The notes under the pieces: generated by a model
The model's input: only the letters and a program-made list of their open reading frames with translations
Database searches by the model: none
What the model was told of the DNA's origin: nothing
Shown: positions 18,439 through 36,684 of the stretch, in pieces
How positions within the stretch are numbered: position 1 is the stretch's first letter
Layout: each line of letters opens with the position of its first letter
DNA from: Actinomycetota bacterium
GTDB taxonomy: Bacteria; Actinomycetota; UBA4738; HRBIN12
Reading direction: 5' to 3'
Assembly: GCA_036265325.1 (NCBI GenBank)
Contig: DATAPH010000029.1
Span: 41,347 to 105,346, forward strand
DNA: 64,000 nucleotides
Translations under genes and position numbers: made by a program

Positions 18439-19587
18439 TCAGTACAGGAACATCGGTTTGCCGTCGACGTGGCGGATCTTCGGCAGGTAGCGCTCGGCGT
18501 CGTAGAGCGCGGATACGTCGACGCGTTTGACGCCCTGGCCGAGGACGGTGAGCGGGACGTTCACGTAGTTGCCGTTGCGGAGCGCGACGAGACGACCGGT
18601 CGACCCCTCGATGACAAGGTCGGTCGCCATCACTGCGTAGTTGATCGCTACCATCAGATCGAGCGAGTCCGGCGAGCCCGAGCGCATCAGGTAGCCGAGC
18701 TGCTGATGGATCATGTCCTGGCCGGTGCGCTCTTTGAGCAGCTCGCTCGTCAGCTCGCCGATCCCGCCGAGCTTGCGGTGCCCGTACGCATCCTCGTCGC
18801 CCGACAGCATCATGTCGCCGTCCGTGAGGGTCGCGCCCTCGCTGATCGTCATCATCGCGTAGTTGCTCGGGTTGTCCCTCTTGTCGCGCATCAGCAGCTC
18901 GGCGAGCCTGTCGACGTCGAACGGCACTTCGCTGATGATCGCGCGGTCGACGCCCGAGAGGTACGCGGACACGAGCGACGTCTCACCGCTGTAGCGACCG
19001 AAGACCTCGACGACGGCGAGCCGCTCGTGCGAGCCCGCGCTCGTCCGCAGCTGGTGCACGAAATTCACCGTACGCGTGACCGCGGTCGAGAAGCCGATGC
19101 AGTAGTCGGTGCCGTGGACGTCGTTGTCCATCGTCTTCGGGATCGCGACGACCGGGACGCCCTCTTGATGCAGTCGAAGGCCGAACGACAACGTGTCGTC
19201 GCCGCCGATCGGGATGAGCGCCGAGATGCGGAGCCGTTCGATCATCCGCAACACGTGCGCGGTGTGGTCGCGCGGCGCATCGTCGGTCCGACCGCCGCGC
19301 AAGAACGCCGGCTCGTTCGCGGGCCTCACCTTGGCCGGATTCGTCCGGGAGGTGTGTAGGAACGTGCCACCGCTGCGGTCGATCGTGCGCACGGTCGCCG
19401 GATCCAGCATGATCGTGCCGGTCTGGACGGCGAGCGGGTTCTCGGGATCGGTGTCGAGCAGGCCCGCCCAGCCCTTGCGGATGCCGATCACCTGGTGGCC
19501 TTCGCTCGTCGCACGGCCGACGACGGCTTTGATGCACGCGTTCAGCCCCGGCACGTCGCCGCCACCGGTGAGGATGCCGATCTTCAT
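18439..19587 (-). CDS. 6-phosphofructokinase paralog with PPi-type signature
   Basis: [22 protein letters not shown] (Asp at the E. coli Gly104 position) and PKTMDND (Lys at position 124). Confidence 0.8.
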
Positions 19588-19617
19588 GCGGGCAGCCTAC
19601 AGAGCGCCTTCACGCCG

Positions 19618-20631
19618 CTAGCAGAGGATCTCGGGGATCTGCCACAACTCCGGCGGGAGCGTGCGCGGACCCTGGATCTCGGCGAGGGGCACGGGCTCGA
19701 TCCGGCCGGCGTGCAGGCCCATCATGACGTCCCAGCCGCCGTCGAACGCGCGATCGACGGCGTCGCGCCCGAGACGCGTCGCGAGCACGCGGTCGAACGC
19801 CACGGGTGAGCCGCCACGCTGCACATGGCCGAGCACCGTGACACGGGTCTCGAATCCGGTGCGGCGCCCGATCTCCTCCGCGACGATCGACCCGATCCCG
19901 CCGAGCCGCGGGAACCCGTTCGCGTCCACCGGATAGTCCGGGACCAACATGGACGCCTCGATCGGCGTCGCGCCCTCAGAGACGACAACGATCGCGAACG
20001 AGCGCCGCAGCACCACCGTTTCGCGGATCCGCCGGCACACGGCCTCGATGTCGAAGGGGTGCTCCGGCAGCAATATCACGTCGGCACCTGCCGCCACGCC
20101 CGCGGTGTAGCCGATCCAGCCGGCGTGGCGGCCCATGACCTCGCACACCATTACGCGGTCGTGGCTCTCTGCGGTGCTGTACAGGCGGTCGACGAGGTCG
20201 GTCGCGATCTGCGCGGCCGTATGGAACCCGATGCTTGCGTCGGTGCCGCAGACGTCGTTATCGATCGTCTTCGGGATGCCGATGACAGGCACGCTGACCC
20301 ACACGGCCTCTGCGATCGTGCCCTCGCCGCCGATCACCAGCATCCCGTCCAGCCGGTGCACGCCGAACGTCTCGCGGACGCGTTCGACGCCTCCCTCGAT
20401 CCGGTGCGGCTGCACGCCGCTGGTGCCGAGGAAGGTGCCGCCCCGCGGCAAGATGCCGCGGACATCGTCGATCGTGAGCTCCTTGGCTTCGTTGTCGAGG
20501 ACGCCTCGCCAGCCGTCGGCGAACCCGATCACCGTTGCGCCGCGTTCGGCGTGGCCGTACCGCACGATGGCGCGGAGCGCGGCGTTCAGCCCGGGGCAGT
20601 CACCGCCGCCCGTGAGGACCCCCAGACGCAT
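19618..20631 (-). CDS. pfkA: 6-phosphofructokinase paralog, probably ATP-dependent
   Basis: MRLGVLTGGGDCPGLNA. GGEGT (Gly at position 104) and PKTIDND. 337 aa, the size of actinomycete ATP-PFKs. Confidence 0.8.
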   Translation of the reverse strand: MRLGVLTGGGDCPGLNAALRAIVRYGHAERGATVIGFADGWRGVLDNEAKELTIDDVRGILPRGGTFLGTSGVQPHRIEGGVERVRETFGVHRLDGMLVIGGEGTIAEAVWVSVPVIGIPKTIDNDVCGTDASIGFHTAAQIATDLVDRLYSTAESHDRVMVCEVMGRHAGWIGYTAGVAAGADVILLPEHPFDIEAVCRRIRETVVLRRSFAIVVVSEGATPIEASMLVPDYPVDANGFPRLGGIGSIVAEEIGRRTGFETRVTVLGHVQRGGSPVAFDRVLATRLGRDAVDRAFDGGWDVMMGLHAGRIEPVPLAEIQGPRTLPPELWQIPEILC

Positions 20632-22692: not shown

Positions 22693-23301
22693 CTACCCGG
22701 AGCGGTCGCCCTGCCCCTGGAGGTCGCCCGGTTCGTCGATGTCGCGGAGCGTCAACCGGCCCGGGTCGAGCGCCGTCCACGTCGCCTCGTCGATCACGGC
22801 GGTGCGCAGCGAGTCGAGCGCGTCGCGCAACCGGCGACGGCCTGCATGCAGGAGGGCGTGTACCGCGTCGGCGGCCGGCCACGTGCGAAGCGCGATCGGC
22901 AACGGACGAGGCCGGTCGCCATCGGCAAGCGCAGCGGCCTCGACGCTCGCCTCGTCGAGCGTGTCGAGCAAGAGCCGAAGGACCGAGGGCTGGAGCTCGG
23001 GCATGTCCCCGCCCGCAACGAGCACCTGGTCGGTTCGGACCGCAGCGAGGAGCCCCGTGTGCAACCCGGCGAGCGGCCCCTCGCCTTCCTGCAGATCGTG
23101 CGTCACCGTCACGTCGTCCGGGAGGTCCTCCCGTTCGACGCCGGGAGGGACGACGACAATCACGCCGTCGGTGACGGCCGCGACGGCATCGACCGCGCGG
23201 CGAACCAGCGGCACGCCGTCCAGCGACGCACCGAGCTTGTCCGATCCGAACCGGGTAGAGCGTCCGCCGGCGAGCACGATGCCGCTACGGAGCGGCGGCA
23301 T
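22693..23301 (-). CDS. mobA: Molybdenum cofactor guanylyltransferase
   Basis: GIVLAGGRSTRFGSDKL...LVAGGDMP. Lies directly downstream of the FDH genes. Confidence 0.85.
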   Translation of the reverse strand: MPPLRSGIVLAGGRSTRFGSDKLGASLDGVPLVRRAVDAVAAVTDGVIVVVPPGVEREDLPDDVTVTHDLQEGEGPLAGLHTGLLAAVRTDQVLVAGGDMPELQPSVLRLLLDTLDEASVEAAALADGDRPRPLPIALRTWPAADAVHALLHAGRRRLRDALDSLRTAVIDEATWTALDPGRLTLRDIDEPGDLQGQGDRSG

Positions 23302-24244
23302 CGTCCCGGCGCTTCCGCCGCTGCACGAACTGGAAGCCGAACCGTCCCTTGACGCACAGATGGCCGTGCGTCACGAACTGGTCGGCCGGCGAGCCGACCT
23401 TCACGATCGTGTTGTCCTGGACGTGCACCTCGAGCTCGCACCCCACGCCGCAATACGGGCAGATCGTGTTGGTGACGGTCTGCGCGGACTCATCCCAGGT
23501 CCCCGCCTCGCGCATGTCGTGTTCGCTCTTGAACATCAGCGCGCCCGTCGGGCAGACACCGATGCAATTGCCGCAGTAGACGCACGCGCTCGCGTCCAGC
23601 GGCACCGCGTACTCGGTCGAGATGCGGGCATCGAACCCGCGCCCTGCCACCGCGATGGCGAACGTGTGCTGCGCGTCGGTGCCGCACGCCTCGACGCACT
23701 TGTAGCAGAGCACGCAGCGTCCGTAGTCGCGCACGTAGAGATCGTTGTCGATCTTGACCGGCTGCTCGACCGTCTCCGCCACGGTTGGGTCGGGATCGTG
23801 GTGGTGGCCCGGCTCACGCCCGTCGCGCTCCCCCGCCGGCATCGGCTCCATCGCGGGGCCGAACCGCTCCGGGTCCGCCGCGTACTCGTCCTGCCACCGG
23901 TGCCAGTCCTCGTTCGCGAGCGACGTGTCCACGCTCGAACCGAGGAACTCCATGACGAGCTTCCGGGAATGCCGCACGCGCTCGGTGTCGGTCGAGATCC
24001 TCATTCCGGCCTCGGCCCGGCGCGAGCATGCGGGCACGAGCACCCGCGAGCCCTCCACCTCGACGACGCACACCCGGCATGCGTTGATCGGCGTCAAGTT
24101 GTCGGCGTAGCACATCGTCGGCGTGTCGACGCCGGTCGCGCGGCACGCGTCGAGGATCGTCGAGCCTTCGGGGACACGCACCGTCGTCCCGTCGATCTCG
24201 ACGTCCATCAACTTCCGTGGGGTTTCGACCGGGATGGTGCTCAT
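23285..24244 (-). CDS. Formate dehydrogenase alpha, N-terminal Fe-S module only (2Fe-2S, 4Fe-4S clusters and the Mo/W-bis-MGD-type 4Fe-4S domain)
   Basis: NuoG-like CRVCVVEV; ferredoxin motifs CVLCYKCVEAC and CVYCGNCIGVCPTGAL. It ends with CPYCGVGCELEV...LCVKGRFGFQFVQ, then stops where the molybdopterin domain normally begins. ATGA overlap with the upstream gene. Confidence 0.85.
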   Translation of the reverse strand: MSTIPVETPRKLMDVEIDGTTVRVPEGSTILDACRATGVDTPTMCYADNLTPINACRVCVVEVEGSRVLVPACSRRAEAGMRISTDTERVRHSRKLVMEFLGSSVDTSLANEDWHRWQDEYAADPERFGPAMEPMPAGERDGREPGHHHDPDPTVAETVEQPVKIDNDLYVRDYGRCVLCYKCVEACGTDAQHTFAIAVAGRGFDARISTEYAVPLDASACVYCGNCIGVCPTGALMFKSEHDMREAGTWDESAQTVTNTICPYCGVGCELEVHVQDNTIVKVGSPADQFVTHGHLCVKGRFGFQFVQRRKRRDDAAAP

Positions 24245-26082
24245 GCGGTCGCCTCCCCGTCGAACAGGCCGAACGTCGCGATCGCCGACTGAACCGCGCT
24301 CGCGGCTGTCTGGCCCAGCCCGCAGATCGACGCGTCCCGCATGACGGCAGCGACGTCGCCGAGGAGCGCGACTTCATCGGCGATCGAGCCGATCGTTCGG
24401 CCGATCACAAGTCGGTGTAGAGCCTCCTCCTGTCGAACCGTGCCGACACGACATGGCACACATTGCCCGCAACTCTCGTCTCGGAAGAAGCGCGCGATCC
24501 GCAGGCACAGGTCGACGAGGTCGGCGTCCTCGTCGAGGACCATCACGACGCCGGAGCCAAGCGTGTAGCCACCGGCGCGGGCGTCCTCGAACGTGAGGCG
24601 AGCGTCGAGCCGGTCGGGCCCCACGAACCCGCCTGCGGCTCCCCCGAGCAAGATGGCCTTGATCGTGTTGCCGCCGCGAACGCCGCCGGCCGCCTCGATC
24701 ACCTCGCTGAGCGTGACGCCGTGCGGATGTTCATACACGCCAGGCCGCGCGACGTGGCCGGACAGACAGAACAACCGCGTTCCGGTGGAGTCGGCCGTGC
24801 CCACCGACGCGTACTCGTCGACGCCGAGGTTGAGGATGGGAAGCACGTTGATCAGCGTCTCGACGTTGTTGATCGACGTGGGCTTGCCGAACACGCCGTG
24901 CGTCACCGGGAACGGCGGCTTGTTCCGAGGCTCACCGCGCTTGCCTTCGATCGAGTTGAACAGCGCCGTCTCTTCCCCGCAGATGTAGGCGCCGGCGCCG
25001 CGTCGGAGCTCGATGTCGAATGACCGACCGGGTCCGAACACACCGGCGCCGAGCAGACCGGCGTCACGCGCCTCTTCGATCGCCTTCGACACCCGTTGCG
25101 TCGCGAGCGGATATTCGCCCCGGATGTAGAGATATCCCTGCTCCGCGCCGGTCGCGAACCCGGCGATGGTGAGCGCCTCGATCACCGCGAACGGATCGCG
25201 TTCCATCACCACCCGGTCCTTGAACGTGCCGGGCTCCGACTCGTCGGCGTTGCAGATCACGTACTTCGGGGTCACGCGTTGATCCGCAACACCGGTCCAC
25301 TTCACGCCCGTTGGGAACGCCGCGCCGCCTCGGCCCAACAGCTTCGCCGCGGTGACGAGTTGGATCACCTCGGCCCCGCCGAGCTCGAGCGCACGCGGCA
25401 GGGCCGTGTACCCGCCGAGCGCGCGGTAGCCCTCGAGCGACGTGGCGGAGGGATCGCCAACGCGGGCGAGCAACCGGTCTCCCGCGTAGACGGGCTCTCG
25501 CGGGACGCTCGTGTAGGCGACCGCGCCCTCGATCCGCTGGTCACGTATCGCCTGCATCACCCGCGGCGGACTCGCCGCGACGTCTGTCAGGACGACGTCG
25601 TCACGCGACTCCCCCGCCCGCTGAACCAGCGCGGCGGGGGCGCGCTCGCACTGCCCGAGACACGGGCTCGAGACCACCACGGCCTCCTCCGGATGCACGT
25701 CGCGCCGACATGCGTCGAGCAGCTCACGGCCTCCTGCGACACGACACGCGAGGTCGTCGCACACGTGAACCACGGTCGGTGCCCGTTCCTCGAGACTGAA
25801 CATCGCGTAGAACGTCGCGACGCCATAGGCCTCCGCGGGCGGGACGGTCAGACGCTCGCAGACATAGTTGAGGCCACCCTCGCTGACCCACCCGACGGCG
25901 CCCTGCAGTGCGTGCAATGCCGGCAGCAGCAACGTCCGCCGGTCCTCGGGGGCGCGAGACACGCGAAGATCGGCCGAGGTCCGCGCGCCGCCCTCCCAAC
26001 TCGTCTCGGGCGGACCGAGAAGTGCGTCGACGGCAGCTCGTTCGGCGGGGGCCGCCTCCGCCGTCATGAGGTGGAGATCCAC
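24241..26082 (-). CDS. NuoE-NuoF fusion (NAD-reducing diaphorase subunit of formate dehydrogenase, FdsG/FdsB-like)
   Basis: NuoE-type 2Fe-2S region (HVCDDLACR...SPCLGQCERAP). NuoF motifs GRGGAAFPTGVKW, ICNADESEPGTFKDR and ESCGQCVPCRVGT. The GTG start lies 1 nt after the upstream stop. Confidence 0.9.
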   Translation of the reverse strand: MDLHLMTAEAAPAERAAVDALLGPPETSWEGGARTSADLRVSRAPEDRRTLLLPALHALQGAVGWVSEGGLNYVCERLTVPPAEAYGVATFYAMFSLEERAPTVVHVCDDLACRVAGGRELLDACRRDVHPEEAVVVSSPCLGQCERAPAALVQRAGESRDDVVLTDVAASPPRVMQAIRDQRIEGAVAYTSVPREPVYAGDRLLARVGDPSATSLEGYRALGGYTALPRALELGGAEVIQLVTAAKLLGRGGAAFPTGVKWTGVADQRVTPKYVICNADESEPGTFKDRVVMERDPFAVIEALTIAGFATGAEQGYLYIRGEYPLATQRVSKAIEEARDAGLLGAGVFGPGRSFDIELRRGAGAYICGEETALFNSIEGKRGEPRNKPPFPVTHGVFGKPTSINNVETLINVLPILNLGVDEYASVGTADSTGTRLFCLSGHVARPGVYEHPHGVTLSEVIEAAGGVRGGNTIKAILLGGAAGGFVGPDRLDARLTFEDARAGGYTLGSGVVMVLDEDADLVDLCLRIARFFRDESCGQCVPCRVGTVRQEEALHRLVIGRTIGSIADEVALLGDVAAVMRDASICGLGQTAASAVQSAIATFGLFDGEATA

Positions 26083-26083
26083 G

Positions 26084-28009
26084 CTAGGAGGCTACCTCCG
26101 CGCCGTGCCCGTTCAGCTTCTCCACACGGATCGCGGTCGCCTTGAACTCGGCGGTGCCGGACTTCGGGTCGGTCGCCTCGATCGTCAGCCGGTTGGTCTC
26201 GACCTCGTCCGGGAAGTGCATCGTCATGAACGCGAGCCCTGGCCGAAGGGCGCTGGAGACGTGCACCGGCGCGACGACCTCCCCGCGGCGCGACGACACG
26301 AGCACCTGCTCGCCTTCGACGAGCCCGAGTGCCTCGGCGTCTTCCTGCGAAAGCTCGACCGACTCGGGACGTCGCAGCGGCGAGGTGTACGCGTTGGTCT
26401 GCACGCCGGTGTTGTAGGAATCGAGCCGCCGTCCCGTCGTCAGCCGGATCGGGAACTGCTCGGTCAGCTCGTCCACCGGCGGCTCATCGTCGACCACGCT
26501 GAACGGCGCCGGGCGCAACCGCTCGTCCGGATCCTCAGACCACAGGCGCGCGTGCAGGTACTGCGTCCCCGGGTGGTCGACGTCCCAGCACGGCCATTGC
26601 GCGCCGCCCATCTGGTCCAGCCGCTCCCATGTCATCCCCTGGTGCATCGGCGAGAGCGACCGCAGCTCGTCCCACGCCTCGCGCGGCGTGAGGTCTCCCC
26701 ACTCGTACCCGAGGCGCTTCGCGAGCTGGGCGATGATCCAGATGTCGTCCTTGGCCTCACCGGGCGGATCGAGCGCCTTGCGGACCCGCTGCACCCGTCG
26801 CTCGGAGTTGGTGACGGTTCCCTCGGACTCGAACGCCGAATTCGACGCCGGCAACACGACATCGGCGATCTCTGCGGTCTTCGTCATGAAGATGTCCTGC
26901 ACGATCAGCGTGTCGAGGTTCTCCAGCAGCTTGGTCGCGTGCTGGCTGTCCGCCTCCGAGCTGACTGGGTTCTCACCGATGCAGTAGATCGCGGTCAGCT
27001 CGCCCTCTTCCATCGCGTGGAACATCTCGCTGAGATGCCAGCCGTACCGCGGGATGATCTCGGTGTCCCACGCAGCGTTGAATCGCGCCCGTGCGTCGTT
27101 ATCGCGGATGATGTCCTGGAAGCCCGGGAGCTTGTTCGGGATCGCGCCCATGTCGCCGCCGCCCTGCACATTGTTCTGGCCGCGCAGCGGGTTCAACCCG
27201 CTCCCGTACGTGCCGACGTGACCGGTCAGCAAGGCGAGGTTGATCAGCGCCAGGACGTTGTCAGTACCGTTGTGGTGTTCCGTGATGCCGAGCGTCCAGC
27301 AGATCATGGCCCGGTCGGCCTTCGCGTACCGGTGCGCGACCTCGCGGATCACCTCGGCGGGGATGCCCGTCACCGCCGCGCCGCGCTCGAGCGTCCAATC
27401 TGCCACGCTCTCGGCGTATTCCTCGAAGTTCTCCGTCCCCCGCTCGATGAACGTACGGTCGTGTAGGTCGCTCGCGATGATCTCGCGGGCGATCGTGTTC
27501 GACAGTGCGACATCCGTGCCCACATCGATGCCCAACCAGAGATCGGCGAACGCCGCGGACTCCGTGCGGCGAGGGTCGACCACGATCAGCTCGGTGCCGC
27601 TCTCGATCCCGCGCAGGACATGGTGGAAGAAGATGGGGTGCGCGGCGCGCGCGTTCGAACCCCACATCAGGATGAGGTCGGTGTGCTCGACCTCTTCGTA
27701 TGAGCTGGTACCGCCACCGGCACCGAAGACGGTCGCCAGACCGGCGACCGAAGGTGCGTGTCAGGTGCGGTTGCAGCTATCGATGTTGTTGGTTCCAAGG
27801 ACCTGACGAGCGAACTTCTGCGCAACGAAGTTCATCTCGTTGGTGGCCTTCGAACAGCTGAAGATCCCCGCTCCCCAGCCGGGGTTGCGATCCATCGCGT
27901 GGCGCAGCCCCTCGGCGGCCCGGGCCAGGGCCTCGTCCCAGGTGGCGGTGCGCAGCTCGCCGTGCTCGCGAACCATCGGCTCGGTTAGCCGGGTCATCGT
28001 TGCAGACAT
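26084..28009 (-). CDS. fdhA: Formate dehydrogenase catalytic (molybdopterin) subunit, selenocysteine-containing. It joins ORF-track entries 27761..28009 and 26084..27667 across an in-frame TGA.
   Basis: Both ORFs share one frame (1926 nt = 642 codons). Read-through gives GTNNIDSCNRT-U-HAPSVAGLATVFGAGGGTSSYEEVEHTDLILMWGSNARAAHP. This matches the FdhF active-site block GTNNVDCCARV-U-HGPSVAGL. Confidence 0.85.
27717..27754 (-). other. Bacterial SECIS-like hairpin 3' of the UGA
   Basis: mRNA reads UGA CAC GCA CCU UCG GUC GCC GGU CUG GCG ACC GUC UUC GGU GC. Apical stem GGUCGCC/GGCGACC with a GGUCU loop; lower stem GCACC/GGUGC. The GGUCUG sits at the same codon offset as in the E. coli fdhF SECIS (from memory). 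Confidence 0.7.
27758..27760 (-). other. In-frame UGA recoded as selenocysteine
   Basis: TGA sits at the exact position of the catalytic Sec/Cys of formate dehydrogenases (..CNRT-U-HAPSV..). Confidence 0.8.
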
Positions 28010-28130
28010 CGATGCAGGCTCTCCTTCCTCCGGACGTTCGGATGTGCGTATCGTACGACCGGGTCAGCCGGCGTCGGGAACGGCGTCTGGCGGACGTGCT
28101 GACCAACGTTCAGCTGCGAGGGAGGTGCTC

Positions 28131-28589
28131 ATGAAGCTCGCCGAAGCGCTCCAGCTCCGGTCCGACGTCCAGAAGCGGATCCAACAGCTCCGACAGCGGA
28201 TCGCGCTGAGCGCACGCACGCAGGAGGGCGAGCAGCCCGCCGAGGACCCGAACGCGCTGCTGGCCGAGGTCGCCGGGCTGACCGACCAGCTCGAGTCGCT
28301 GATCACCGCGATCAACCGGACGAACGTCCGCACCGAGCTCGAGCCGGGCCTCTCGATGACCGATGCGCTCGCGCGGCGCGACGTGCTGCACCTCCGGCGC
28401 TCGATCTGGGTGGAGGCCGCCGGGAATGCATCGGTCCGTCAGGACCGGTACTCACGCTCCGAGGTTCGGTTCATGACCCCGCTCGACGTGGCGGCGCTGC
28501 ATCGCGAGGCGGACGAGCTGGCCAAGCGCGCTCGCGAGCTCGACGCCAAGATCCAGCAGGCGAACTGGAACACCGACCTGGAGGGCTGA
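28131..28589 (+). CDS. Small coiled-coil protein, DIP1984-family-like (start moved to ATG 28131)
   Basis: GAGGGAGG RBS upstream. The N-terminus MKLAEALQLRSDVQKRIQQLRQRI...EGEQPAEDPNALL resembles the DIP1984 family as I recall it. Confidence 0.65.
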   Translation: MKLAEALQLRSDVQKRIQQLRQRIALSARTQEGEQPAEDPNALLAEVAGLTDQLESLITAINRTNVRTELEPGLSMTDALARRDVLHLRRSIWVEAAGNASVRQDRYSRSEVRFMTPLDVAALHREADELAKRARELDAKIQQANWNTDLEG

Positions 28590-28670
28590 TCGGAAGTCGG
28601 TAGGTGTGGTGGAGAGGGCGTGACGCAACCGGCTCCCCGAGCCAGGCGGTTTCGGTCAGGGGCGGCCGAT

Positions 28671-28687
28671 GCGGGTTCGAATCCCGC
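28671..28687 (+). other. tRNA T-arm-like element (GCGGG-TTCGAAT-CCCGC) without a foldable cloverleaf
   Basis: The canonical GGTTCGAATCC T-loop consensus sits inside a 215-bp convergent intergenic region. I could pair no acceptor, D or anticodon arm by hand. Confidence 0.35.
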
Positions 28688-28804
28688 GAGTGACGCACGA
28701 AGCCCAGCACGGCGTACAGCTGCACGGGGCATCGGGCACCGAGCACGACCGAGCGTCGACTCGAGACCGCACCGAGGGTGGGAACGGGGATCTTCCGAAG
28801 GTGA

Positions 28805-29368
28805 TCAGCGGCCACCGAGCTCGCGATACCGGAAGCACGACGTGACGTGGTCGTTGACCAGGCCGACGGCCTGCATGAGGGAATAGCACACCGTCGGCCC
28901 AACGAACCGGAACCCCTGCCGCCTGAGCTCCTTCGACATCGTGCGCGACACGTCGGTCTCCGCGGGGATCGTGCCGACGCCGCGCCGCTTCCCGATCACG
29001 GGCGACCGGTTAACGAACGACCACAGCAGCTCGTCAAGCGACCCGTCGAGCGCCGCGATGGCCCGCGCGTTGGCGACGGTCGACTCCACCTTCAAACGGT
29101 TCCGCACGATCGAGGGATCGGTGAGCACGCGCTCGACCTTCGCCGGGGTGAATCTCGCCACCTTCGCGGCATCGAAGCCGGCGAACGCGTTCCGGTAGCC
29201 GTCGCGCTTGTACAGGATGGTCCGCCACGACAGACCGGCCTGTGCGCCCTCGAGGGTGAGCATCTCGAACAGGTGCCGCTCGTCGTGGCTCGGCACGCCC
29301 CATTCTTCGTCGTGATAAGCGAGGTACCGATCGTCGCCGAGCGGCACCCACGCGCATCGATCGGGCAC
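28805..29368 (-). CDS. tag: DNA-3-methyladenine glycosylase I
   Basis: RCAWVP..DDRYLAYHDEEWGVP...FEMLTLEGAQAGLSW...NDHVTSC. GTG 29368 gives a 187-aa product, the typical Tag size. Confidence 0.88.
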   Translation of the reverse strand: MPDRCAWVPLGDDRYLAYHDEEWGVPSHDERHLFEMLTLEGAQAGLSWRTILYKRDGYRNAFAGFDAAKVARFTPAKVERVLTDPSIVRNRLKVESTVANARAIAALDGSLDELLWSFVNRSPVIGKRRGVGTIPAETDVSRTMSKELRRQGFRFVGPTVCYSLMQAVGLVNDHVTSCFRYRELGGR

Positions 29369-29446
29369 GGTTCGGGAGCCTAGCCAGGTGGACCGGCATG
29401 CGGCCGCCGAGCCATGATGCGGCCAGATGTTGGAGGATGCACCGTG

Positions 29447-30292
29447 ATGCGCGAGCCCGAATCGATCCCCATCCACGAGATCCCCGCTGAGCCGGGCCCG
29501 GCAACGGCGGACAGCGGCCCCAGCGCGACCGAGCGCGGCATCGACTTCCTGGCCGGGGTCGTCTCGTTCGGCGCCGGGCTCGTCGTCGCCGCGCTCGACG
29601 GCGGCGACGACACGGACGAGCGCACGGCAGGCGTCGCCGCGTTCGTGGCCGCAGGCGCAGGCCTGTTCCTAGAAGGGCTGCGTGCGGCGGCGCCGATGCT
29701 CGGTTCGATCGAGCGAACCGCCGGACCGAAGATCGGATCGACCGGTGCCGGCGAGACCGTCGGCGAGCTGCTCGACCACTGGCGCTCCAGCTGGGAGGAC
29801 CGGCACGAGGACGAGCGGCAGCAGGTGGCAGACGAGCAGCTCCGCGCCACGTTCCAGCGCGCCGTCGACACCCTCCTCGGTCAGCTCGACCTGACCACCC
29901 TGGTGATCGACCACCTCGACATCCGGCGGGTGGCGGCAGGGGTCGACATCCAGGCGATGGTCGCGGATCTCGACATGGATGCGCTGGTCGGACGGCTCGA
30001 CATGGACCGCCTCCTGGACGGGATCGACATGGACCGGCTGCTCGATCGCATCGACATGGAGCGCCTCACTGCGCGGATCGACGTCGAGGCGCTGCTGGAC
30101 CGGGTCGACATGCCCGCGGTGGCATCGAGCGTGATCGATGACCTCGACATCCCGCAGGTGATCCGAGAAGCGACGGCCGACACGGCATCCGAGGGCGTGC
30201 GCGACGTGCGCCTGCGCGGTGTCGAGGCGGACCGGGCGATCCGCCGCGCGGTCAACCGGATCCTCTCGCGGTCCAACGGGGACGCGCCATGA
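29447..30292 (+). CDS. Hypothetical membrane-associated protein with about 10 tandem nonapeptide (L/I/V)D(M/I/V)xxLLxx repeats
   Basis: GGAGGA lies 9 nt upstream of ATG 29447. Two hydrophobic segments precede LDLTTLVID-H-LDIRRVAAG-VDIQAMVAD-LDMDALVGR-LDMDRLLDG-IDMDRLLDR-IDMERLTAR-IDVEALLDR-VDMPAVASS...LDIPQVIRE. ATGA overlap with the RDD gene. Confidence 0.7.
   Translation: MREPESIPIHEIPAEPGPATADSGPSATERGIDFLAGVVSFGAGLVVAALDGGDDTDERTAGVAAFVAAGAGLFLEGLRAAAPMLGSIERTAGPKIGSTGAGETVGELLDHWRSSWEDRHEDERQQVADEQLRATFQRAVDTLLGQLDLTTLVIDHLDIRRVAAGVDIQAMVADLDMDALVGRLDMDRLLDGIDMDRLLDRIDMERLTARIDVEALLDRVDMPAVASSVIDDLDIPQVIREATADTASEGVRDVRLRGVEADRAIRRAVNRILSRSNGDAP
29885..30169 (+). repeat. 27-nt periodic coding repeat (TCGACATGGA core)
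   Basis: tcgaca/tcgacg recurs at about 29915, 29943, 29970, 29997, 30024, 30051, 30078 and 30105, and again out of register at 30144. Confidence 0.8.
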
Positions 30293-30885
30293 CCACGCGC
30301 GCGACCGGCTTCGACACCGTTCCGAAGGAGGCACGCCCGTTCCACGGGCAGGCTGCCGGCCTGGTCACACGGACGATCGCCAACGTCGTCGACGTCGTCG
30401 TCGTCGCCGGGTTGCTCGGCGCCTGCTACCTGGGGGTCTCAGGCGTGCTGTTCCTGCGACGCGGCGCCGGTTTCACGTTCCCGATCGTGACCTACCGGAT
30501 GGCCTATCTCGTGGGCTTCGCGGGCTGGGTGATCTACATGACCTTCGGATGGCGCACCAATGGCCGCACCTACGGCGACCAGCTGCTCGGCCTTCGCGTC
30601 CGCAAGACGGATGGGGAGGACGTCGGGGGTATGCGCGCCCTGATCCGTGCACTGTTGTGCGGCATCGCACCGCTGCTTCTCGCATGGTGCGCCATCAGCA
30701 AGGACCAACGCAGCGTCCAAGACCTGATCGTCGGAACGCATGTGATCTACGACTGGGGCGGGTCGCGCCGGCGGCGCGTCTCAGACGACGCGGTCCGCGT
30801 GGGTGTAGACGTTGCACCGCCCGTCCCGGACGAACCCGACGACGGTCACGCCGAGCCGCTCCCCCGCGTCGACGGCGAGCGATGA
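30289..30885 (+). CDS. RDD-family membrane protein
   Basis: AGLVTRTIANVVDVVVV...RTYGDQLLGLRVRKTDGEDV...ALIRALLC; three TM helices. The C-terminal 35 codons overlap the fdhD 3' end on the other strand. Confidence 0.75.
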   Translation: MTTRATGFDTVPKEARPFHGQAAGLVTRTIANVVDVVVVAGLLGACYLGVSGVLFLRRGAGFTFPIVTYRMAYLVGFAGWVIYMTFGWRTNGRTYGDQLLGLRVRKTDGEDVGGMRALIRALLCGIAPLLLAWCAISKDQRSVQDLIVGTHVIYDWGGSRRRRVSDDAVRVGVDVAPPVPDEPDDGHAEPLPRVDGER

Positions 30886-31617
30886 CGGCGCACTGACCGC
30901 GCTCACCACGGGGATCCCCGCGACCGCCGCCTTCTGCACGATCTCGAACGACGCACGACCCGACACCTGCAAGACGCGATCCGACAGCGGGACGCGTCCG
31001 GCGAGCAGCTGTTCGCCGATGACCTTGTCCACGGCGTTGTGACGGCCGACGTCCTCACGGACCGAGAGCACAGACCCATCGGCGTCGAACAGACCGGCGG
31101 CGTGCAACCCGCCGGTGCGGTCGAACACACGCTGGGCTTCCCGAAGTCGGTCGGGCATCGAGACAAGCACGTCCGCGTCGACCGTGAAGCCGGGTGGGAC
31201 CACGTCGCACCGCACGACGATGTCGTCCAGCGACGCTTTCCCGCAGACGCCGCACGACGACGTAGCGAAGAAGTTCCGGGAGAGCTGCTCGGCGTCGAAC
31301 GGGCGCGCGAGTGTCACCGTCACGACGTTGTACTGCTGTTCCTCGTCGTCGAGGTCGTCGCAGTAGGCGACACGGCGGATATCGTCGGAAGTCACGAGGC
31401 CCTCGGTGAACAGGAATCCGGCGGCCAGTTCGAAGTCGCCGCCGGGCGTGCGCATCGTCACGGCGACGCGGTGGGCTTCCTGACCCGGCCCTTGTGACCG
31501 GATCTCGAGAGGCTCCTCGGTCGCAAGCGCGTCGGCGCGCTCCGAGCGCGCGTCCCCGTTGACCGCGACCACGCGCACAGGGGTCACGTTGCGTCGAACC
31601 TCTTCGGGAGCGGCCAT
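30781..31617 (-). CDS. fdhD: Formate dehydrogenase accessory sulfurtransferase FdhD (only the last 278 codons of the 991-aa ORF)
   Basis: MAAPEEV...TMRTPGGDFELAAGFLFTEG...SSCGVCGKASL...GGLHAAGLF...VGRHNAVDKVIG. The rest of the 991-aa ORF is antisense shadow of fhs. Confidence 0.88.
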   Translation of the reverse strand: MAAPEEVRRNVTPVRVVAVNGDARSERADALATEEPLEIRSQGPGQEAHRVAVTMRTPGGDFELAAGFLFTEGLVTSDDIRRVAYCDDLDDEEQQYNVVTVTLARPFDAEQLSRNFFATSSCGVCGKASLDDIVVRCDVVPPGFTVDADVLVSMPDRLREAQRVFDRTGGLHAAGLFDADGSVLSVREDVGRHNAVDKVIGEQLLAGRVPLSDRVLQVSGRASFEIVQKAAVAGIPVVSAVSAPSSLAVDAGERLGVTVVGFVRDGRCNVYTHADRVV

Positions 31618-31740: not shown

Positions 31741-33411
31741 ATGCTGTCCGGACTCGAGATCGCCCAAGCAGCCGAGCTGCGGGCCATCGCAGAGGTCGCT
31801 GCCGACGCCGGCATCGAACCCGGCGAGCTTCGGCCGTACGGAGCGTCCCGAGCGAAGGTCTCGCTGTCCATCCTGGACCGGCTGGCGGACCGGCCCAACG
31901 GCAAGCTCGTGATCACGACGGCGATCACGCCGACCAAGGCGGGCGAAGGCAAAACGACGACGTCGGTCTCGCTGACCCAAGGCCTCGGATCGATCGGCAA
32001 GGACGTGATCCTCGCGCTTCGTGAACCGTCCATGGGCCCCGTCTTCGGGATCAAAGGCGGCGGCACCGGCGGCGGGTACGCACAGGTGGTGCCGATGGAG
32101 GAGATCAACCTCCACCTCAACGGGGACTTCCACGCGATCACCGCGGCGCACAATCTGCTCTCGGCGGCGCTCGACGCATCGATCTACCACGGCAACCCGC
32201 TCGACATCGATGCGCAGACGATCACCTGGCCGCGCACGCTCGACGTGAACGACCGCGAGCTCCGAAACACCGTGATCGGCCTCGGCGGGAAGGTCCACGG
32301 TGTGCCACGCCAGGAGGGGTTCGTGATCACCGCGGCGTCGGAGATCATGGCGATCCTCGCGCTCGCGAGCGACCTGCAGGACCTGCGCGCACGCCTCGGG
32401 CGGATCATCGTCGCGTCGACCCGCAACGGCCGTCCGGTGACCGCCGACGACCTGAAGGCAGCGGGCGCGATGACGGTGATCATGCGCGACGCGATCGAGC
32501 CGAACCTCGTGCAGACCCTCGAGCACCAACCGGTGTTCCTGCACGCCGGTCCCTTCGGCAACATCGCCCACGCGAACAACTCGATCATCGAAGACCGGAT
32601 CGCGCTCAAGCTCGCCGGATACGTCATCACCGAGGCCGGGTTCGCGAGCGACTTGGGCTTCCAGAAGTTCTGTGACATCGTCTGTCGGTTCGGTGGGTTC
32701 GCCCCCAGCGCCGGCGTGCTCGTGACGACGGTCAGGGCAACCAAGTCGCACGGCGGGATGGCGTTCAACGACCTCGGCACCGAGGACCTCGAGGCGCTCA
32801 AGCGCGGGATCGACAACCTGACCGCACATATCGGCATCCTTCGCGAATACGGCCTGCCGTGCGTCGTCTCGATCAACAACTTCCCGAGCGACACCGCCGC
32901 AGAGATCGCGTTGATCCGTGAGCTGGCGGTCGGCGCCGGCGCCGAGACGGTCGTCGTGAACCGCGGGTTCGCCGAGGGCGGCGCGGGCGCGACCGAGCTG
33001 GCCGAGGCCGTCGTCGAGGCGTGCGAACGGCCGAACACGTTTCACCAGCTCACGCCCGACGGCACCCCGCTCAAGGATCAGATCGAGGCGATCGCGACGC
33101 GGCTGTACGGCGCCGACGGCGTCGACTACCTCCCGCAGGCCGAGAAGGACATCGCGCGCATGGACGAGCTCGGGTTCGGCAGCGTGCCGGTGTGCATGGC
33201 CAAGACCCACCTTTCGCTCAGCCACGACCCGCTGATGCTCAACCGGCCGCGCGGCTTCCGACTCCCCGTGCGCGGCGTCGTGCCGAGTGCCGGCGCGGGA
33301 TTCGTCGTGGTGTTGTGCGGAGATATGCAGCGGATGCCGGGCCTCGGCGCGACGCCGAACTTCATGGGCGTCGACATCGACGCCGACGGCCGCACCGTCG
33401 GCTTGTTCTGA
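31741..33411 (+). CDS. fhs: Formate--tetrahydrofolate ligase
   Basis: ITPTKAGEGKTTTSVSL P-loop; 556 aa; FHAITAAHNLL and LHAGPFGNIAHA blocks. Confidence 0.93.
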   Translation: MLSGLEIAQAAELRAIAEVAADAGIEPGELRPYGASRAKVSLSILDRLADRPNGKLVITTAITPTKAGEGKTTTSVSLTQGLGSIGKDVILALREPSMGPVFGIKGGGTGGGYAQVVPMEEINLHLNGDFHAITAAHNLLSAALDASIYHGNPLDIDAQTITWPRTLDVNDRELRNTVIGLGGKVHGVPRQEGFVITAASEIMAILALASDLQDLRARLGRIIVASTRNGRPVTADDLKAAGAMTVIMRDAIEPNLVQTLEHQPVFLHAGPFGNIAHANNSIIEDRIALKLAGYVITEAGFASDLGFQKFCDIVCRFGGFAPSAGVLVTTVRATKSHGGMAFNDLGTEDLEALKRGIDNLTAHIGILREYGLPCVVSINNFPSDTAAEIALIRELAVGAGAETVVVNRGFAEGGAGATELAEAVVEACERPNTFHQLTPDGTPLKDQIEAIATRLYGADGVDYLPQAEKDIARMDELGFGSVPVCMAKTHLSLSHDPLMLNRPRGFRLPVRGVVPSAGAGFVVVLCGDMQRMPGLGATPNFMGVDIDADGRTVGLF

Positions 33412-33416
33412 GCGAT

Positions 33417-33860
33417 CTACGCCACCTCGTCGTCCGGCGGCATCACGCAGAACTCGTTGCCCTGCGGATCGAGCATCACGCACCAGACGCCGCCGTCGGC
33501 CTCGGCCCAGTTGTGGATCGTCGCGCCGAGGTTCTCGAGCCGCTCGACCTCCGCTTCGAGATCCTCGTCGGCGAGCACGTCGAGGTGCACGCGGTTCTTC
33601 GTCACCTTGTCCTCGGGCACCTCGGTGAAGAACAGCACCGGCAGCTCGGAGTCTTCCGGCGGCTCGACCATCACGGTCGGATCGTCCTCGGGATCGACGA
33701 TGCCTTTCGCTGCGAGGCGCGCGAGCTCGACCTCGTCGTAGGCGCCGACGTTCCACCCGAGCGCCTCGGCCCAGAACCGCGCGAGCGGGGCGGCATCACG
33801 GCAGTCGAAGACGATGGCGTCGATCCGCACGGCCGGAGCCTGCGCCGCGGGGCCTCGCAA
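33417..33860 (-). CDS. VOC (glyoxalase-like) family protein
   Basis: IDAIVFDCRDAAPLARFWAEALGW...VHLDVL...EVERLENLGA. Confidence 0.7.
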   Translation of the reverse strand: MRGPAAQAPAVRIDAIVFDCRDAAPLARFWAEALGWNVGAYDEVELARLAAKGIVDPEDDPTVMVEPPEDSELPVLFFTEVPEDKVTKNRVHLDVLADEDLEAEVERLENLGATIHNWAEADGGVWCVMLDPQGNEFCVMPPDDEVA

Positions 33861-33882
33861 CGCAAGTCCCGCGGCGATCCGC

Positions 33883-34665
33883 TCAGGCGTGGACCGCGAT
33901 GAAGAAGGCCTCGCTCACATCCCGCAGGAGCGACTGGGCCCGGTGGCGGAGCGAGTTCGCGGAATCGCTCAGCTCCTGTTGCCGCGTCTTGTCGATGAAT
34001 GTGATGGCGTTGATGTCCACGTTGGCCAGCGCGGACAGCGCGGCCGCGTGCAACGACGTCGCGGCGCTCAGCGCATCCGACGCCGCGTTGGGGTTGCCGG
34101 AGCTCAGCGTCTCTTCGGCGAGCGCCATCAGGTAGACCGCCCGCCGCGCCACCTCGAGCGGGATATCCGCGGCGCGCTCGAGCGACTTCTGCAGCGTCGT
34201 CGACCACGTGTGCTGCTCCTCGGGGGTGTTCTTCGGCAACTTGTATGCCGCCATGACGTCGCGATACGCCTCGGCGTCGCGGTCGGCCAGCGCAAGCAAC
34301 GCGTAGCGTTCGTCGTCGCATTCGTCGGCGATCGCACGCATCCGGTCCACGACCGACTCGTAGCCCTTCTTCTTGATGGTCAGGCGCGCGACCATCGCCA
34401 CGAGCGCCGCGCCGGCCGCGGCGGACACGGCGGCCCAGGCGCCACCGCCGGGCGTGGGCTGATCGGACGCGAGCTCCTCGAGATAGACGCCGACCCTTGA
34501 GCCGGCGGTCGGCATGTCCTCGATCGGCACCTTCTCAGGGGACGCCGTCGAGGCCGTGCTCGGAGCGGCGGCCCAGCCGCTCGCCGGCTGCTCGGGACGT
34601 CCGAGACCCGGCACGGCGCCCGCCGTCGACTCCGATCCCTGCCGGCCGCCCCACTGGTCGCTCAC
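33883..34665 (-). CDS. Cyclodeaminase/cyclohydrolase-family protein (FTCD C-terminal-domain-like) with a 55-aa low-complexity N-terminal extension
   Basis: LEELASDQPTPGGGAWAAVSAAAGAALVAMVARL. The GTG start forms a GTGA overlap with the formimidoyltransferase stop. Confidence 0.8.
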   Translation of the reverse strand: MSDQWGGRQGSESTAGAVPGLGRPEQPASGWAAAPSTASTASPEKVPIEDMPTAGSRVGVYLEELASDQPTPGGGAWAAVSAAAGAALVAMVARLTIKKKGYESVVDRMRAIADECDDERYALLALADRDAEAYRDVMAAYKLPKNTPEEQHTWSTTLQKSLERAADIPLEVARRAVYLMALAEETLSSGNPNAASDALSAATSLHAAALSALANVDINAITFIDKTRQQELSDSANSLRHRAQSLLRDVSEAFFIAVHA

Positions 34666-35561
34666 GACGCCTCCTCGATCAGTCGCTCGAGCACCTGCGT
34701 CCGCCGGTCGAACCCGCGAAGCCGGACGTGGTCTGCGTCCTCCGGCGACAACGCAGCGTCCGGCACGAGTCCAATGATCTCGGTGTCGAGCACCTCTTCG
34801 CCGCGGGCCTCAGCCTGGGCGACGACGGCATCGTACGCCGTGCGCACCCCGGTGATCGTGAAATCGACGAGGTTCATCGAGACCGTCGAACAGTCTCGTT
34901 CGGGCACGAAGAAGCCGATCGCGCGGAGCGCCGGCAGACCGCCGCTCGATTCCCGGATCGTGCGCGCGATGTCCTTCGCGGCATCTTCGTCGACGGTCAC
35001 GTAGGCGTTGAACGCCACGAGCGGCACCCGTGCGCCGACGGCGGTCGCGCCCGCCGACCCGATGGCGTGGGGGCCGAGATCGGGGAGCCGCTCCCCCTTC
35101 GCCACGGCGTCGCGCAGGCCTTCGTACTCGCCCTTCCGCACCACGGCGAGCGACCGCCGCTCCGGCAGCAACGCGGCTTGGTCGTACAGGTACACCGGAA
35201 GGTCGAGCGCGCCGGCGAGCTCTTCACCCACCTCGCGCGCCAACGCGACGCACTCGGCCATCTCGACGTCGCGGACCGGCATGAACGGGATGACGTCGGT
35301 CGCGCCCATCCTCGGATGGCCGCCCCGGTGGCGCTCCATGTCGATCAACCCGGCCGCGACCCGCGTCGCGTTGACGGAGGCACGGCGTACACCGTCGCGA
35401 CTCCCGAGCACCGTGGTGTCGAGCCGGTTGTGGTCGGCGTCGGCCTGCCGGTAGACGAGGTGGGCGCCCGGAACCTGCAGCGCGTCGCAGATGGCGTCCA
35501 TCACGTCGACGCGGCGCCCCTCCGAGAAGTTCGGCACGACACCGAAGATCGGCTCAGCCAC
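34662..35561 (-). CDS. Glutamate formimidoyltransferase (FTCD N-terminal-domain-like)
   Basis: GVVPNFSEGRRVDVMDAI...HPRMGATDVIPF. Confidence 0.85.
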   Translation of the reverse strand: MAEPIFGVVPNFSEGRRVDVMDAICDALQVPGAHLVYRQADADHNRLDTTVLGSRDGVRRASVNATRVAAGLIDMERHRGGHPRMGATDVIPFMPVRDVEMAECVALAREVGEELAGALDLPVYLYDQAALLPERRSLAVVRKGEYEGLRDAVAKGERLPDLGPHAIGSAGATAVGARVPLVAFNAYVTVDEDAAKDIARTIRESSGGLPALRAIGFFVPERDCSTVSMNLVDFTITGVRTAYDAVVAQAEARGEEVLDTEIIGLVPDAALSPEDADHVRLRGFDRRTQVLERLIEEAS

Positions 35562-35579
35562 GAGCGGAGGATAGTCGCC

Positions 35580-36659
35580 TCAGGCGCGAGGCTTCGCCTT
35601 CTCCGGATCCAGGATCGACAGGGGTGCAACCGTCGCGACCGCGCCGCCGACCTCGACCTTCGTCCCGTCATCGGCCACCGCGGTATCGAGGATCGCGAGC
35701 CCGATCGGGCCAACGCGGGGGCTGTCCGCAGGCGACGTCACGACGCCGACCTCCGCGCCGTCCCTGGTCACGGCCGTTCCCGCCTCCGGGACCGCGCCCT
35801 CGAACCGCAGGGTCTTGAAGCGCTTCGGGGGGTTCGACCCATAGGCCTTCAACGCGTCGGCGCCGACGTTCTCCGTGTCCGTCTTGATGAACCGGTCCAT
35901 CGACACGTCGTACGGCGACGTCTCGCCTGGCTGGTAGTCGACCGCGATGATGATCAGCCCGACCTCGGTGCGCGCCAGGTCGATGGCGTTCAGGCCGAAC
36001 GGCTTCGCGCCGGCCGACAGGAGCGCGTCCCACACGACCTGCGCGTTGTCGGGATCGACGACGACCTCATAGCCGTGCTCGCCGCTGAATCCGGTCCGCA
36101 GCACGTACGCCGGGACGCCGGCGACGGTGGTCATCGTGGGCCAGAAGCGGAAGTAGCCGAGCTCGCCGAGGTCGCGCTCGGTGAGCGGCTGCAGCGTCGC
36201 CTGTGACGTCGGCCCCTGGACCGCGATCATCGCGAGGTCGAGCGTCTTATGCGTGATCGAGGCGTCGAGATCGCTCGCCGTCTCGTTGAACCAATCCTCG
36301 AACCCGGCAGAGTTGATGAGGACCCAGTACCGGGCGTCATTGAACTTGTACACGTTGCCGTCGTCGACCATGTTGCCGTCGGCGTTGACGAAGGCGCCGT
36401 AGCGCACGGCGCCGTCGGGCATCCCGGCGAGCGAGTTGGTGAAGCGGCGCTGGATCAGCCGCGTGGCGTCCGGTCCGCTCACCTCGTACTTGCACGTCGA
36501 GAACAGATCCCAGATGCCGGTCGCGGTTCGGATAGCCTCGTATTCCTCGTTGACCGGCGTCCCCTCGTCCATGGCCCAGGGGAACCCGTCCTCCCAGATG
36601 ATCTCGGCGTTGTGGGCGACGTGCCAGTCGTGCAGCGGCGAGCGAACGTCCTCGGTCAT
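35580..36659 (-). CDS. Aminomethyltransferase-family (GcvT-like) protein, paralog 1
   Basis: EYEAIRTATGIWDLFSTCKYEVSGPDA...FSGEHGYEVV; 359 aa. Confidence 0.8.
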   Translation of the reverse strand: MTEDVRSPLHDWHVAHNAEIIWEDGFPWAMDEGTPVNEEYEAIRTATGIWDLFSTCKYEVSGPDATRLIQRRFTNSLAGMPDGAVRYGAFVNADGNMVDDGNVYKFNDARYWVLINSAGFEDWFNETASDLDASITHKTLDLAMIAVQGPTSQATLQPLTERDLGELGYFRFWPTMTTVAGVPAYVLRTGFSGEHGYEVVVDPDNAQVVWDALLSAGAKPFGLNAIDLARTEVGLIIIAVDYQPGETSPYDVSMDRFIKTDTENVGADALKAYGSNPPKRFKTLRFEGAVPEAGTAVTRDGAEVGVVTSPADSPRVGPIGLAILDTAVADDGTKVEVGGAVATVAPLSILDPEKAKPRA

Positions 36660-36684
36660 GCGATGGCTCCTTCCCGCCGCGCGG

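Follow-up and report, generated by a model that had tools for sequence, protein, structure and literature searches.

How can a formate dehydrogenase (FDH) work if the iron-sulphur cluster next to its pterin cofactor sits on a different polypeptide from its active site? This question is raised by a 64,000-nucleotide stretch of DNA (hereafter the window; positions 41,347 to 105,346 of contig DATAPH010000029.1, assembly GCA_036265325.1, Actinomycetota bacterium), in which four minus-strand genes lie head to tail between positions 28009 and 22693 and encode the catalytic part of an FDH alpha subunit, a NuoE-NuoF fusion (NuoEF), an iron-sulphur (Fe-S) protein and MobA. A preliminary description of the window had given this order and these coordinates, both of which we confirm, and had proposed that the alpha subunit is split, with the domain for the pterin-proximal cluster FS0 encoded two genes downstream of the catalytic open reading frame (ORF). 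We find that the operon is a real and conserved FDH, containing selenocysteine (Sec), with its catalytic subunit cut in two. At a probability that we put at roughly three in four, the four genes would specify a cytoplasmic, NAD(P)+-linked FDH of the FdsABG/Fdh1AB type, i.e. an enzyme with molybdenum or tungsten held by a bis-pyranopterin guanine dinucleotide (Mo/W-bisPGD), assembled from three polypeptides with FS0 provided in trans.

The catalytic ORF begins with MSATMTRLTEPMVREHGELRTATWDEAL (the protein opens MSATMT-RLTEPMVR), and its ATG at 28009 is the earliest start codon available past the upstream in-frame stop, so that no N-terminal extension or hidden domain is possible. Pfam recognizes only Molybdopterin (PF00384; residues 7-432, E=6.6e-71) and Molydop_binding (PF01568; residues 522-625, E=2.3e-28) in this ORF, and neither Pfam nor the Fdh-alpha model TIGR01591 detects a Molybdop_Fe4S4 domain or FS0 cysteines in the 641-residue protein, bearing out what the preliminary description had read from the sequence. 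TIGR01591 scores 643.7 bits, under its equivalog cut-off of 666.25, a shortfall that fits with the first 50 model positions being missing from the catalytic ORF. The active-site motifs NRT-U-HAPS (with the Sec-His dyad, Sec83 and His84) and PLRGQNNVQG (with the conserved Arg) are present, and both are invariant in an alignment of 15 concatenated pairs of Fe-S and catalytic proteins (alignment A2). The counterparts of these three residues in FdhH are U140, H141 and R333.

The FS0 segment is found on the Fe-S protein, in which Pfam identifies Fer2_4, two Fer4 sites and, at residues 256-308, Molybdop_Fe4S4; the C-terminus runs ...CPYCGVGCELEV...LCVKGRFGFQFVQ and ends with a tail of 11 residues, in agreement with the earlier account. 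The four FS0 ligand residues (C262, C265, C269 and C297) are invariant both in A2 and in a smaller alignment of 6 sequences (A1), and the Lys of the CxKG motif (K299) is invariant in A2, with Arg in its place solely in the degenerate P0128/L006. Positions 1-53 of TIGR01591 map to residues 260-312 of the Fe-S ORF, and positions 51-672 map to residues 5-629 of the catalytic ORF. Similarly, the Fe-S protein aligns to residues 27-308 of FdsA (957/958-residue chains 9WXB and 6TG9; E about 1e-41), and the catalytic protein aligns to residues 307-939 of FdsA and 60-689 of Escherichia coli FdhH. Across the junction the fused relatives read ...CVKGRFGYDFIYSEERLRTPLIR..., and the window Fe-S protein ends ...CVKGRFGFQFVQ plus its tail. 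Judged by these alignments, the domain break is exactly complementary between the two halves.

In FdsA the N-terminal ~250 residues are HoxU-like and the other ~700 FdhF-like, and the usual boundary between these modules lies before FS0 (PMC7171172). The cut in the window operon lies ~55 residues beyond it, after the FS0 segment; the proposed split of the alpha subunit is thus upheld and falls directly after FS0, but it does not follow the usual module boundary. In the FdhH structure of Boyington and colleagues from 1997, the first 60 residues reportedly make up only part of domain I and pack on later segments of the chain, and if this holds, the two halves must form an intimate complex.

The protein encoded between the halves unites a thioredoxin-like 2Fe-2S domain, a site for flavin mononucleotide (FMN) and NAD(H), an SLBB domain and the NuoF 4Fe-4S domain (PF01257, PF01512 and PF10589) in one 613-residue chain, which ends 9 residues past PF10589 (525-604) and has no C-terminal ferredoxin (Fer4) domain. 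The Fe-S protein does not have the motif for a His-ligated 4Fe-4S cluster, as the FdsA sequence HPLDCLTCAANGDCELQD aligns to GSSVDTSLANEDWHRWQD. Throughout the split clade (A1 and A2) the FdsA/NuoG motif HxxxCxxCxxxxxC is missing, and a Cys-free variable stretch is found instead (Fe-S residues ~100-170). The corresponding cluster of the Rhodobacter capsulatus enzyme (RcFDH), A4, sits where two FdsA chains meet in the dimer and does not belong to the main electron path (PMC7171172); its loss should therefore not interrupt the wire, and it suggests a different oligomeric state, possibly without an FdsA-type dimer.

The gene junctions look translationally coupled, and functional rather than degraded, as the preliminary description had held: GGAGGAAGGAG stands 5' of ATG 28009, the catalytic stop and the NuoEF start are separated by a 1-nt gap (TAG-c-GTG), the NuoEF and Fe-S genes share an ATGA overlap, and mobA (ATG at 23301) starts inside the Fe-S ORF, with which it has 17 nt in common. 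A promoter/terminator scan found no terminator-like site inside the operon, and the sole promoter-like site that it returned is on the opposite strand. Rfam at the gathering threshold gave zero matches over the whole window, and thus no molybdenum cofactor riboswitch; nor does the window hold a tRNA gene, and hence no tRNA-Sec.

This organization is not peculiar to one genome, and its recurrence at independent loci is more than chance would give. A scan with one genome per species yielded 80 loci, which were compared with the window proteins by tblastn, and this synteny comparison, which had been proposed with the preliminary description, revealed the same split and the same order (catalytic, NuoEF, Fe-S) in 46 of 46 complete three-gene loci from about nine phyla. 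Wherever its end was readable, the Fe-S ORF stops 7-34 residues past the FS0 CxKG motif, and tblastn found no FS0-like sequence upstream of the catalytic gene at any locus. Carriers among the Actinomycetota include Acidimicrobiia, Gaiellaceae, Solirubrobacteraceae, Streptomyces, Amycolatopsis and Nonomuraea; others belong to the Chloroflexota, Planctomycetota, Acidobacteriota, Verrucomicrobiota and Gemmatimonadota, along with Chthonomonas, Candidatus Cybelea (Vulcanimicrobiota) and a "delta proteobacterium". All four genes follow one another in this order in the close relatives L001 and L002 as well, where FdhD and Fhs are encoded close by. Several carrier assemblies are of isolate or chromosome level (e.g. 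L027, on a 6.08-Mb chromosome). In Streptomyces scabiei (L040, on a 9.9-Mb contig) a "molybdopterin oxidoreductase family protein" of 641 residues, a NuoEF counterpart of 610 residues and a "2Fe-2S iron-sulfur cluster-binding protein" of 286 residues are followed by FdhD. The 90%-identity clusters that contain the two S. scabiei halves hold 2,251 and 2,212 sequences, and the close relatives of the Fe-S protein (at 80-95% identity) fall into more than 120 clusters, mostly from metagenome-assembled genomes of Actinomycetota and nearly all 308-342 residues long, a few longer ones bearing N-terminal extensions. The layout is therefore not rare but common and widespread in soil bacteria, Streptomyces included.

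All parts of the system evolve under constraint. Ratios of nonsynonymous to synonymous substitution rates (dN/dS) against two relatives lie at 0.16-0.35 for all parts, with 0.16-0.18 for the FS0 segment. The pairwise identities of the three proteins correlate across loci (Pearson r 0.75-0.83), and within the split clade pairwise identity spans 54-94%. Variants of the layout occur in three Chloroflexota loci with extra DNA between the catalytic gene and NuoEF (0.85 kb in L008, 1.3 kb in L007 and 2.4 kb in L073) and in an Acidobacteriota locus (L053) in which ~1.6 kb separates NuoEF from the Fe-S gene. One locus, L015 (DATLRQ010000161.1), is 63-65% identical to the window and binned as 'Candidatus Micrarchaeaceae archaeon'; it is most likely a mis-binned bacterial contig.

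The comparison of loci also bears on the catalytic residue itself. The catalytic ORF holds a single in-frame TGA (context SCNRT-U-HAPSV), followed after 11 nt by a hairpin core (GGUCGCC-GGUCU-GGCGACC) of the kind expected for a selenocysteine insertion sequence (SECIS); the Rfam model SECIS_3 matches positions 27708-27766, from the UGA on, at 25.4 bits (E=1e-3), which is below its gathering score of 63. In 34 of 34 Sec loci the pairs of the stem are either retained or replaced by equivalent ones, the GGUCU loop does not vary, and compensatory changes in the stem are seen in L064 (C-G to G-C) and in L022 and L024 (U.G to U-A). Cys replaces Sec only in carriers of the class Actinomycetes (Streptomyces, Amycolatopsis, Nonomuraea and Sphaerisporangium), and this swap offers a clean natural contrast that exposes the RNA constraint in the Sec genes. 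Over the 60 nt past the Sec/Cys codon, GGT encodes the Gly of the loop in every one of the 34 Sec loci but in only 1 of 13 Cys loci, and the 3' arm of the former SECIS is altered in the 13 Cys loci. At the Cys-type loci L030, L032-L034, L038-L047 and L052 synonymous changes have eroded what used to be the SECIS, and its 3' arm shows changes in the Ala-Thr codons. The region 3' of the TGA (dN/dS 0.23-0.35) is under purifying selection like the region 5' of it. On this comparative evidence the in-frame TGA is read as selenocysteine.

Table 1. Features of the split FDH operon and of its surroundings (window coordinates)
Feature	Position	Strand	Remarks
Catalytic half of FDH alpha subunit	28009->26084	-	641 aa with Sec; Molybdopterin + Molydop_binding
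NuoE-NuoF fusion	26082->24241	-	613 aa, GTG start
Fe-S half of alpha subunit	24244->23285	-	319 aa; 2Fe-2S, two ferredoxin-type 4Fe-4S, FS0
mobA, molybdenum cofactor guanylyltransferase	23301->22693	-	Domain/family model matches
FS0 (Molybdop_Fe4S4) segment	23321..23479	-	Fe-S protein residues 256-308
In-frame TGA, read as Sec	27763-27761	-	Cys (TGC/TGT) here in 13 Actinomycetes homologues
SECIS hairpin core	27731..27749	-	Starts 11 nt 3' of UGA
Shine-Dalgarno-like GGAGGAAGGAG	28031-28021	-	11 nt 5' of ATG 28009
fdhD, FDH accessory sulfurtransferase	30781..31617	-	278 aa
fhs, formate-tetrahydrofolate ligase	31741..33411	+	Neighbour tying the locus to C1-folate metabolism

How the layout came about can be approached through relatives in which the alpha subunit is whole. 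In a fused outgroup (L071 and L075-L086) both parts are contiguous in one frame, with 34-41% identity to the window in the Fe-S part and 37-43% in the catalytic part, and NuoEF lies mostly upstream of FdhA and once downstream (L078). In a library clustered at 50% identity, identity to the query is 53% or more for split-type proteins but does not exceed 41% for fused ones, and with this gap between the split clade and its fused relatives a single origin is the simplest reading. The split layout probably has one origin, a fused NuoEF-FdhA operon that underwent fission after FS0 together with a circular permutation. The latter could have proceeded by tandem duplication of the operon and subsequent loss of the outer parts, or through a circular copy re-linearised at a point within fdhA, which would also account for the exactly complementary ends. 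The split operon is patchily distributed among about nine phyla, which implies horizontal transfer; it would thus have moved across phyla after its origin, with Sec giving way to Cys in the Actinomycetes. Candidate fusions among long or odd-length relatives in the 50%-identity library (P0122, P0125, P0127, P0141, P0169, P0238 and others) were rejected as frameshifted or read-through translations. Within the fused outgroup, L083 (7001-11167) has ~1.4 kb between the ferredoxin part and the FS0 plus catalytic part, a cut akin to that of HylA/FdhF, and L079 (5935-7671) has a second FdhF-like gene immediately after the fused fdhA.

We propose the following mode of action for the three-chain enzyme. 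The catalytic chain would carry the pterin cofactor with Sec83, His84 and the conserved Arg; the NuoEF chain would carry FMN, the NAD(H) site and one cluster each of the 4Fe-4S and 2Fe-2S kinds; and the Fe-S chain, acting as the wire protein, would carry a 2Fe-2S and two 4Fe-4S clusters and the C-terminal FS0 with its conserved Lys. The FS0 segment of ~55 residues would dock in trans on the catalytic protein, at the position that it has in the single-chain enzymes. Electrons would then pass from the pterin through Lys299/FS0, the two 4Fe-4S clusters, the 2Fe-2S cluster, the NuoF 4Fe-4S cluster and FMN to NAD(P)+, such that the very first transfer step would cross a subunit interface, and the 2Fe-2S cluster of the NuoE part would sit beside the flavin. 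Maturation of the cofactor would involve MobA and FdhD.

As to the direction of catalysis, the neighbouring genes for Fhs, formiminotransferase/cyclodeaminase and two GcvT-like proteins point to formate oxidation, and suggest that formate from C1-folate catabolism is oxidised to CO2. The same adjacency of Fhs and proximity of the GcvT-like genes could be read the other way, with the enzyme working mainly as a CO2 reductase whose formate Fhs would channel into a reductive folate pathway or a reductive glycine pathway; the presence of Sec and the reversibility of FdsABG-type enzymes (PMC7171172) would suit such a role, which concerns the direction only and not the architecture. However, a scan of neighbouring genes over roughly 13.6-38.4 kb of the window showed no other Wood-Ljungdahl genes, the formiminotransferase and cyclodeaminase genes speak for catabolism, and the system is common in aerobic heterotrophs, and we consider a primarily reductive role unlikely.

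Several observations weigh against a single three-chain enzyme. Two loci, L018 and L026, have NuoEF and the Fe-S gene and no catalytic gene within the fetched flanks, so that linkage of the halves is not obligatory; these genomes may either have lost the catalytic gene or carry it at another site. The catalytic gene of L006, the most distant split locus (about 50% identity), is degenerate. No evolutionary intermediate, either split and unpermuted or permuted and fused, was found among the loci and the 50%-identity library, and an AlphaFold model of the Fe-S protein alone, computed on the 6-sequence A1, reached a mean predicted local distance difference test score (pLDDT) of only 49.5 and was discarded. 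With regard to these loci, the genes upstream in L018 and L026 encode large proteins with Ig-like or galactose-binding domains, and L006 (1554-3170, 4957-5820) has Gly at the Sec/Cys site (NNVDCGAGPGHSP), a catalytic ORF that stops short of Molydop_binding and Arg in place of the FS0 Lys (CVRG).

Loci such as L018 and L026, together with the general knowledge that some Mo-bisPGD enzymes have no FS0 (DorA, TorA), could be taken to mean that the operon encodes two independent enzymes: an FS0-less molybdoenzyme similar to dimethyl sulphoxide (DMSO) or trimethylamine N-oxide (TMAO) reductases that has some other partner, and a separate diaphorase in which FS0 is a relic or serves another protein. 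This reading is very unlikely given that the three genes stay together in one order in every complete locus, that the break is exactly complementary, that the identities of the three proteins are correlated, and that the FS0 cysteines are invariant, as is the pterin-facing Lys in A2, with the segment at a dN/dS of 0.16-0.18. Moreover, the catalytic part is of the FdhF-like type, for which FS0 is the only exit for electrons.

Highly improbable, too, is an electron-bifurcating or confurcating FDH of the HylABC-FdhF2 or Bfu type, which would use ferredoxin as well. Although the best matches of NuoEF in the PDB include HydB subunits of bifurcating hydrogenases, and the placement of a NuoG-like Fe-S module on a separate polypeptide is reminiscent of HylA, the NuoF-like subunits of bifurcating enzymes have extra C-terminal [4Fe-4S] ferredoxin domains, and NuoEF does not have such a domain with its two [4Fe-4S] clusters, which makes a simple NAD(P)-linked enzyme most likely. 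In addition, the hosts are mostly aerobic soil lineages, Streptomyces included, and the FdhF of Hyl-type enzymes is generally known to retain its own FS0, unlike the catalytic protein of the window. Finally, an assembly error or an fdhA pseudogene freshly broken by rearrangement in one genome, to which a high-GC genome and the many frameshifted proteins among related metagenomes might point, can be dismissed on the comparative evidence, since many species share exactly this layout in isolate and chromosome-level assemblies (L027 and L040 among them), every part is under purifying selection, and the start codons, ribosome-binding site and gene overlaps are intact.

The three-chain FDH can be placed among known systems by its similarities to each. 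FDH1 of Methylorubrum (M.) extorquens (Fdh1A/Fdh1B; PDB 7VW6, 7E5Z and 8J83) is likewise cytoplasmic and NAD-linked. Its alpha subunit combines the NuoG-like Fe-S module, FS0 and the FdhF-like catalytic part that the two window halves make up together, and its beta subunit has, like NuoEF, a NuoF core preceded by about 185 N-terminal residues, residues 211-604 of NuoEF matching residues 185-559 of 7e5z_B. Laukel and colleagues are said to have described this beta subunit as a NuoE-NuoF fusion in 2003. FDH1 differs, however, in being a heterodimer with tungsten and Cys and an alpha subunit of one 989-residue chain, whereas the window operon has a permuted gene order, encodes Sec and an alpha subunit divided after FS0 into two chains, and has no motif for the His-ligated cluster.

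FdsABG(D) of R. capsulatus and Cupriavidus (C.) necator (PDB 6TG9/6TGA, 6VW7 and 9WXB) provides the best full-length PDB match of the Fe-S half. It has the same chain of cofactors, from the bis(molybdopterin guanine dinucleotide) cofactor, bis-MGD, to FMN, as we predict for the window enzyme (PMC7171172), and like the window operon it is associated with a maturation factor of the FdhD type (FdhD/FdsC). In contrast to the window enzyme, FdsA is a single chain of 958 residues, FdsG and FdsB are separate, the His-ligated A4 lies at the dimer interface and the ligand is Cys. The genes of this type are ordered gamma, beta, alpha, (C), delta in the Rhodobacter aestuarii cluster (PMC13335904), and FdsD is absent from many FDHs of the FdsABG type (PMC7171172).

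Closer to a divided alpha subunit are the clostridial HylABC-FdhF2 or Hyt-type enzymes, in which a NuoG-like module on its own chain accompanies NuoE/NuoF-like and FdhF-like subunits, often with Sec; there, however, the cut precedes FS0 and FdhF keeps its own cluster. Akin to the Fe-S half, HoxU of the NAD-reducing [NiFe] hydrogenases is a NuoG N-terminal module that forms a protein by itself and works with a diaphorase of the NuoE/F type (PMC7171172), and the HoxU family model indeed matches the window protein, although HoxU serves a hydrogenase and is devoid of Molybdop_Fe4S4 (FS0). That a Mo/W-bisPGD catalytic subunit can consist of two reassembling polypeptides has a precedent in FwdB/FwdD (FmdB/FmdD): the formylmethanofuran dehydrogenase of Methanothermobacter has a separate C-terminal subunit (PMC7171172), but it is the C-terminal domain IV that is split off, and FS0 stays on the catalytic chain.

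The surroundings of the operon add further context. A gene for FdhD adjoins the operon also in L001, L002 and L040. A C1-folate cluster (31741-37770) comprises Fhs, a glyoxalase-like protein, a cyclodeaminase (FTCD_C), a formiminotransferase (FTCD_N) and two tandem GcvT-like aminomethyltransferases. A conserved pair of genes (encoding a 292-residue protein and an RDD protein) is separated from the FDH operon by a DUF6847 gene on the plus strand and a 3-methyladenine glycosylase I gene on the minus strand (27840-29476), both of which are absent at that position in L001 and L002. On the other side (18439-20631, minus strand), adjacent phosphofructokinase paralogues of 382 and 337 residues are followed by a carbamate-kinase-like AA_kinase gene, a neighbourhood that is shared with L001.

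To our knowledge, no Mo/W-bisPGD enzyme has been described with FS0 and the pterin site on different chains. A full-text literature search, whose incomplete coverage makes its outcome absence of evidence only, returned no description of an FDH split after FS0, nor did it lend support to identifying Streptomyces coelicolor SCO6559-6562 with this operon; no curated NCBIfam model for either half as such matched, and the RefSeq names are generic. The layout has thus apparently been sequenced thousands of times and gone unremarked. Thousands of generically named database entries could be renamed as halves of one FDH alpha subunit, and metagenome surveys in which FDHs are tallied with models of the full-length alpha subunit probably overlook the split clade in soil phyla.

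Where the alpha subunit is cut matters for its biochemistry, as the FS0 segment is left to pack against parts of another chain. The split enzyme could serve as a natural fragment-complementation system, in which the order of FS0 insertion, cofactor insertion and subunit assembly can be addressed, and as a starting point for modular FDH engineering for CO2 reduction; with culturable and genetically tractable Streptomyces among the carriers, the proposal is directly testable. A more speculative idea, to which we give little credence, is that the catalytic subunit is a detachable cartridge that is matured, stored or replaced alone and is wired only upon docking to a pre-assembled module of NuoEF, Fe-S clusters and FS0. 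If true, it would offer aerobic soil bacteria a post-translational on/off switch or a limit on oxygen damage, and one diaphorase module might serve catalytic subunits encoded elsewhere, as L018 and L026 hint.

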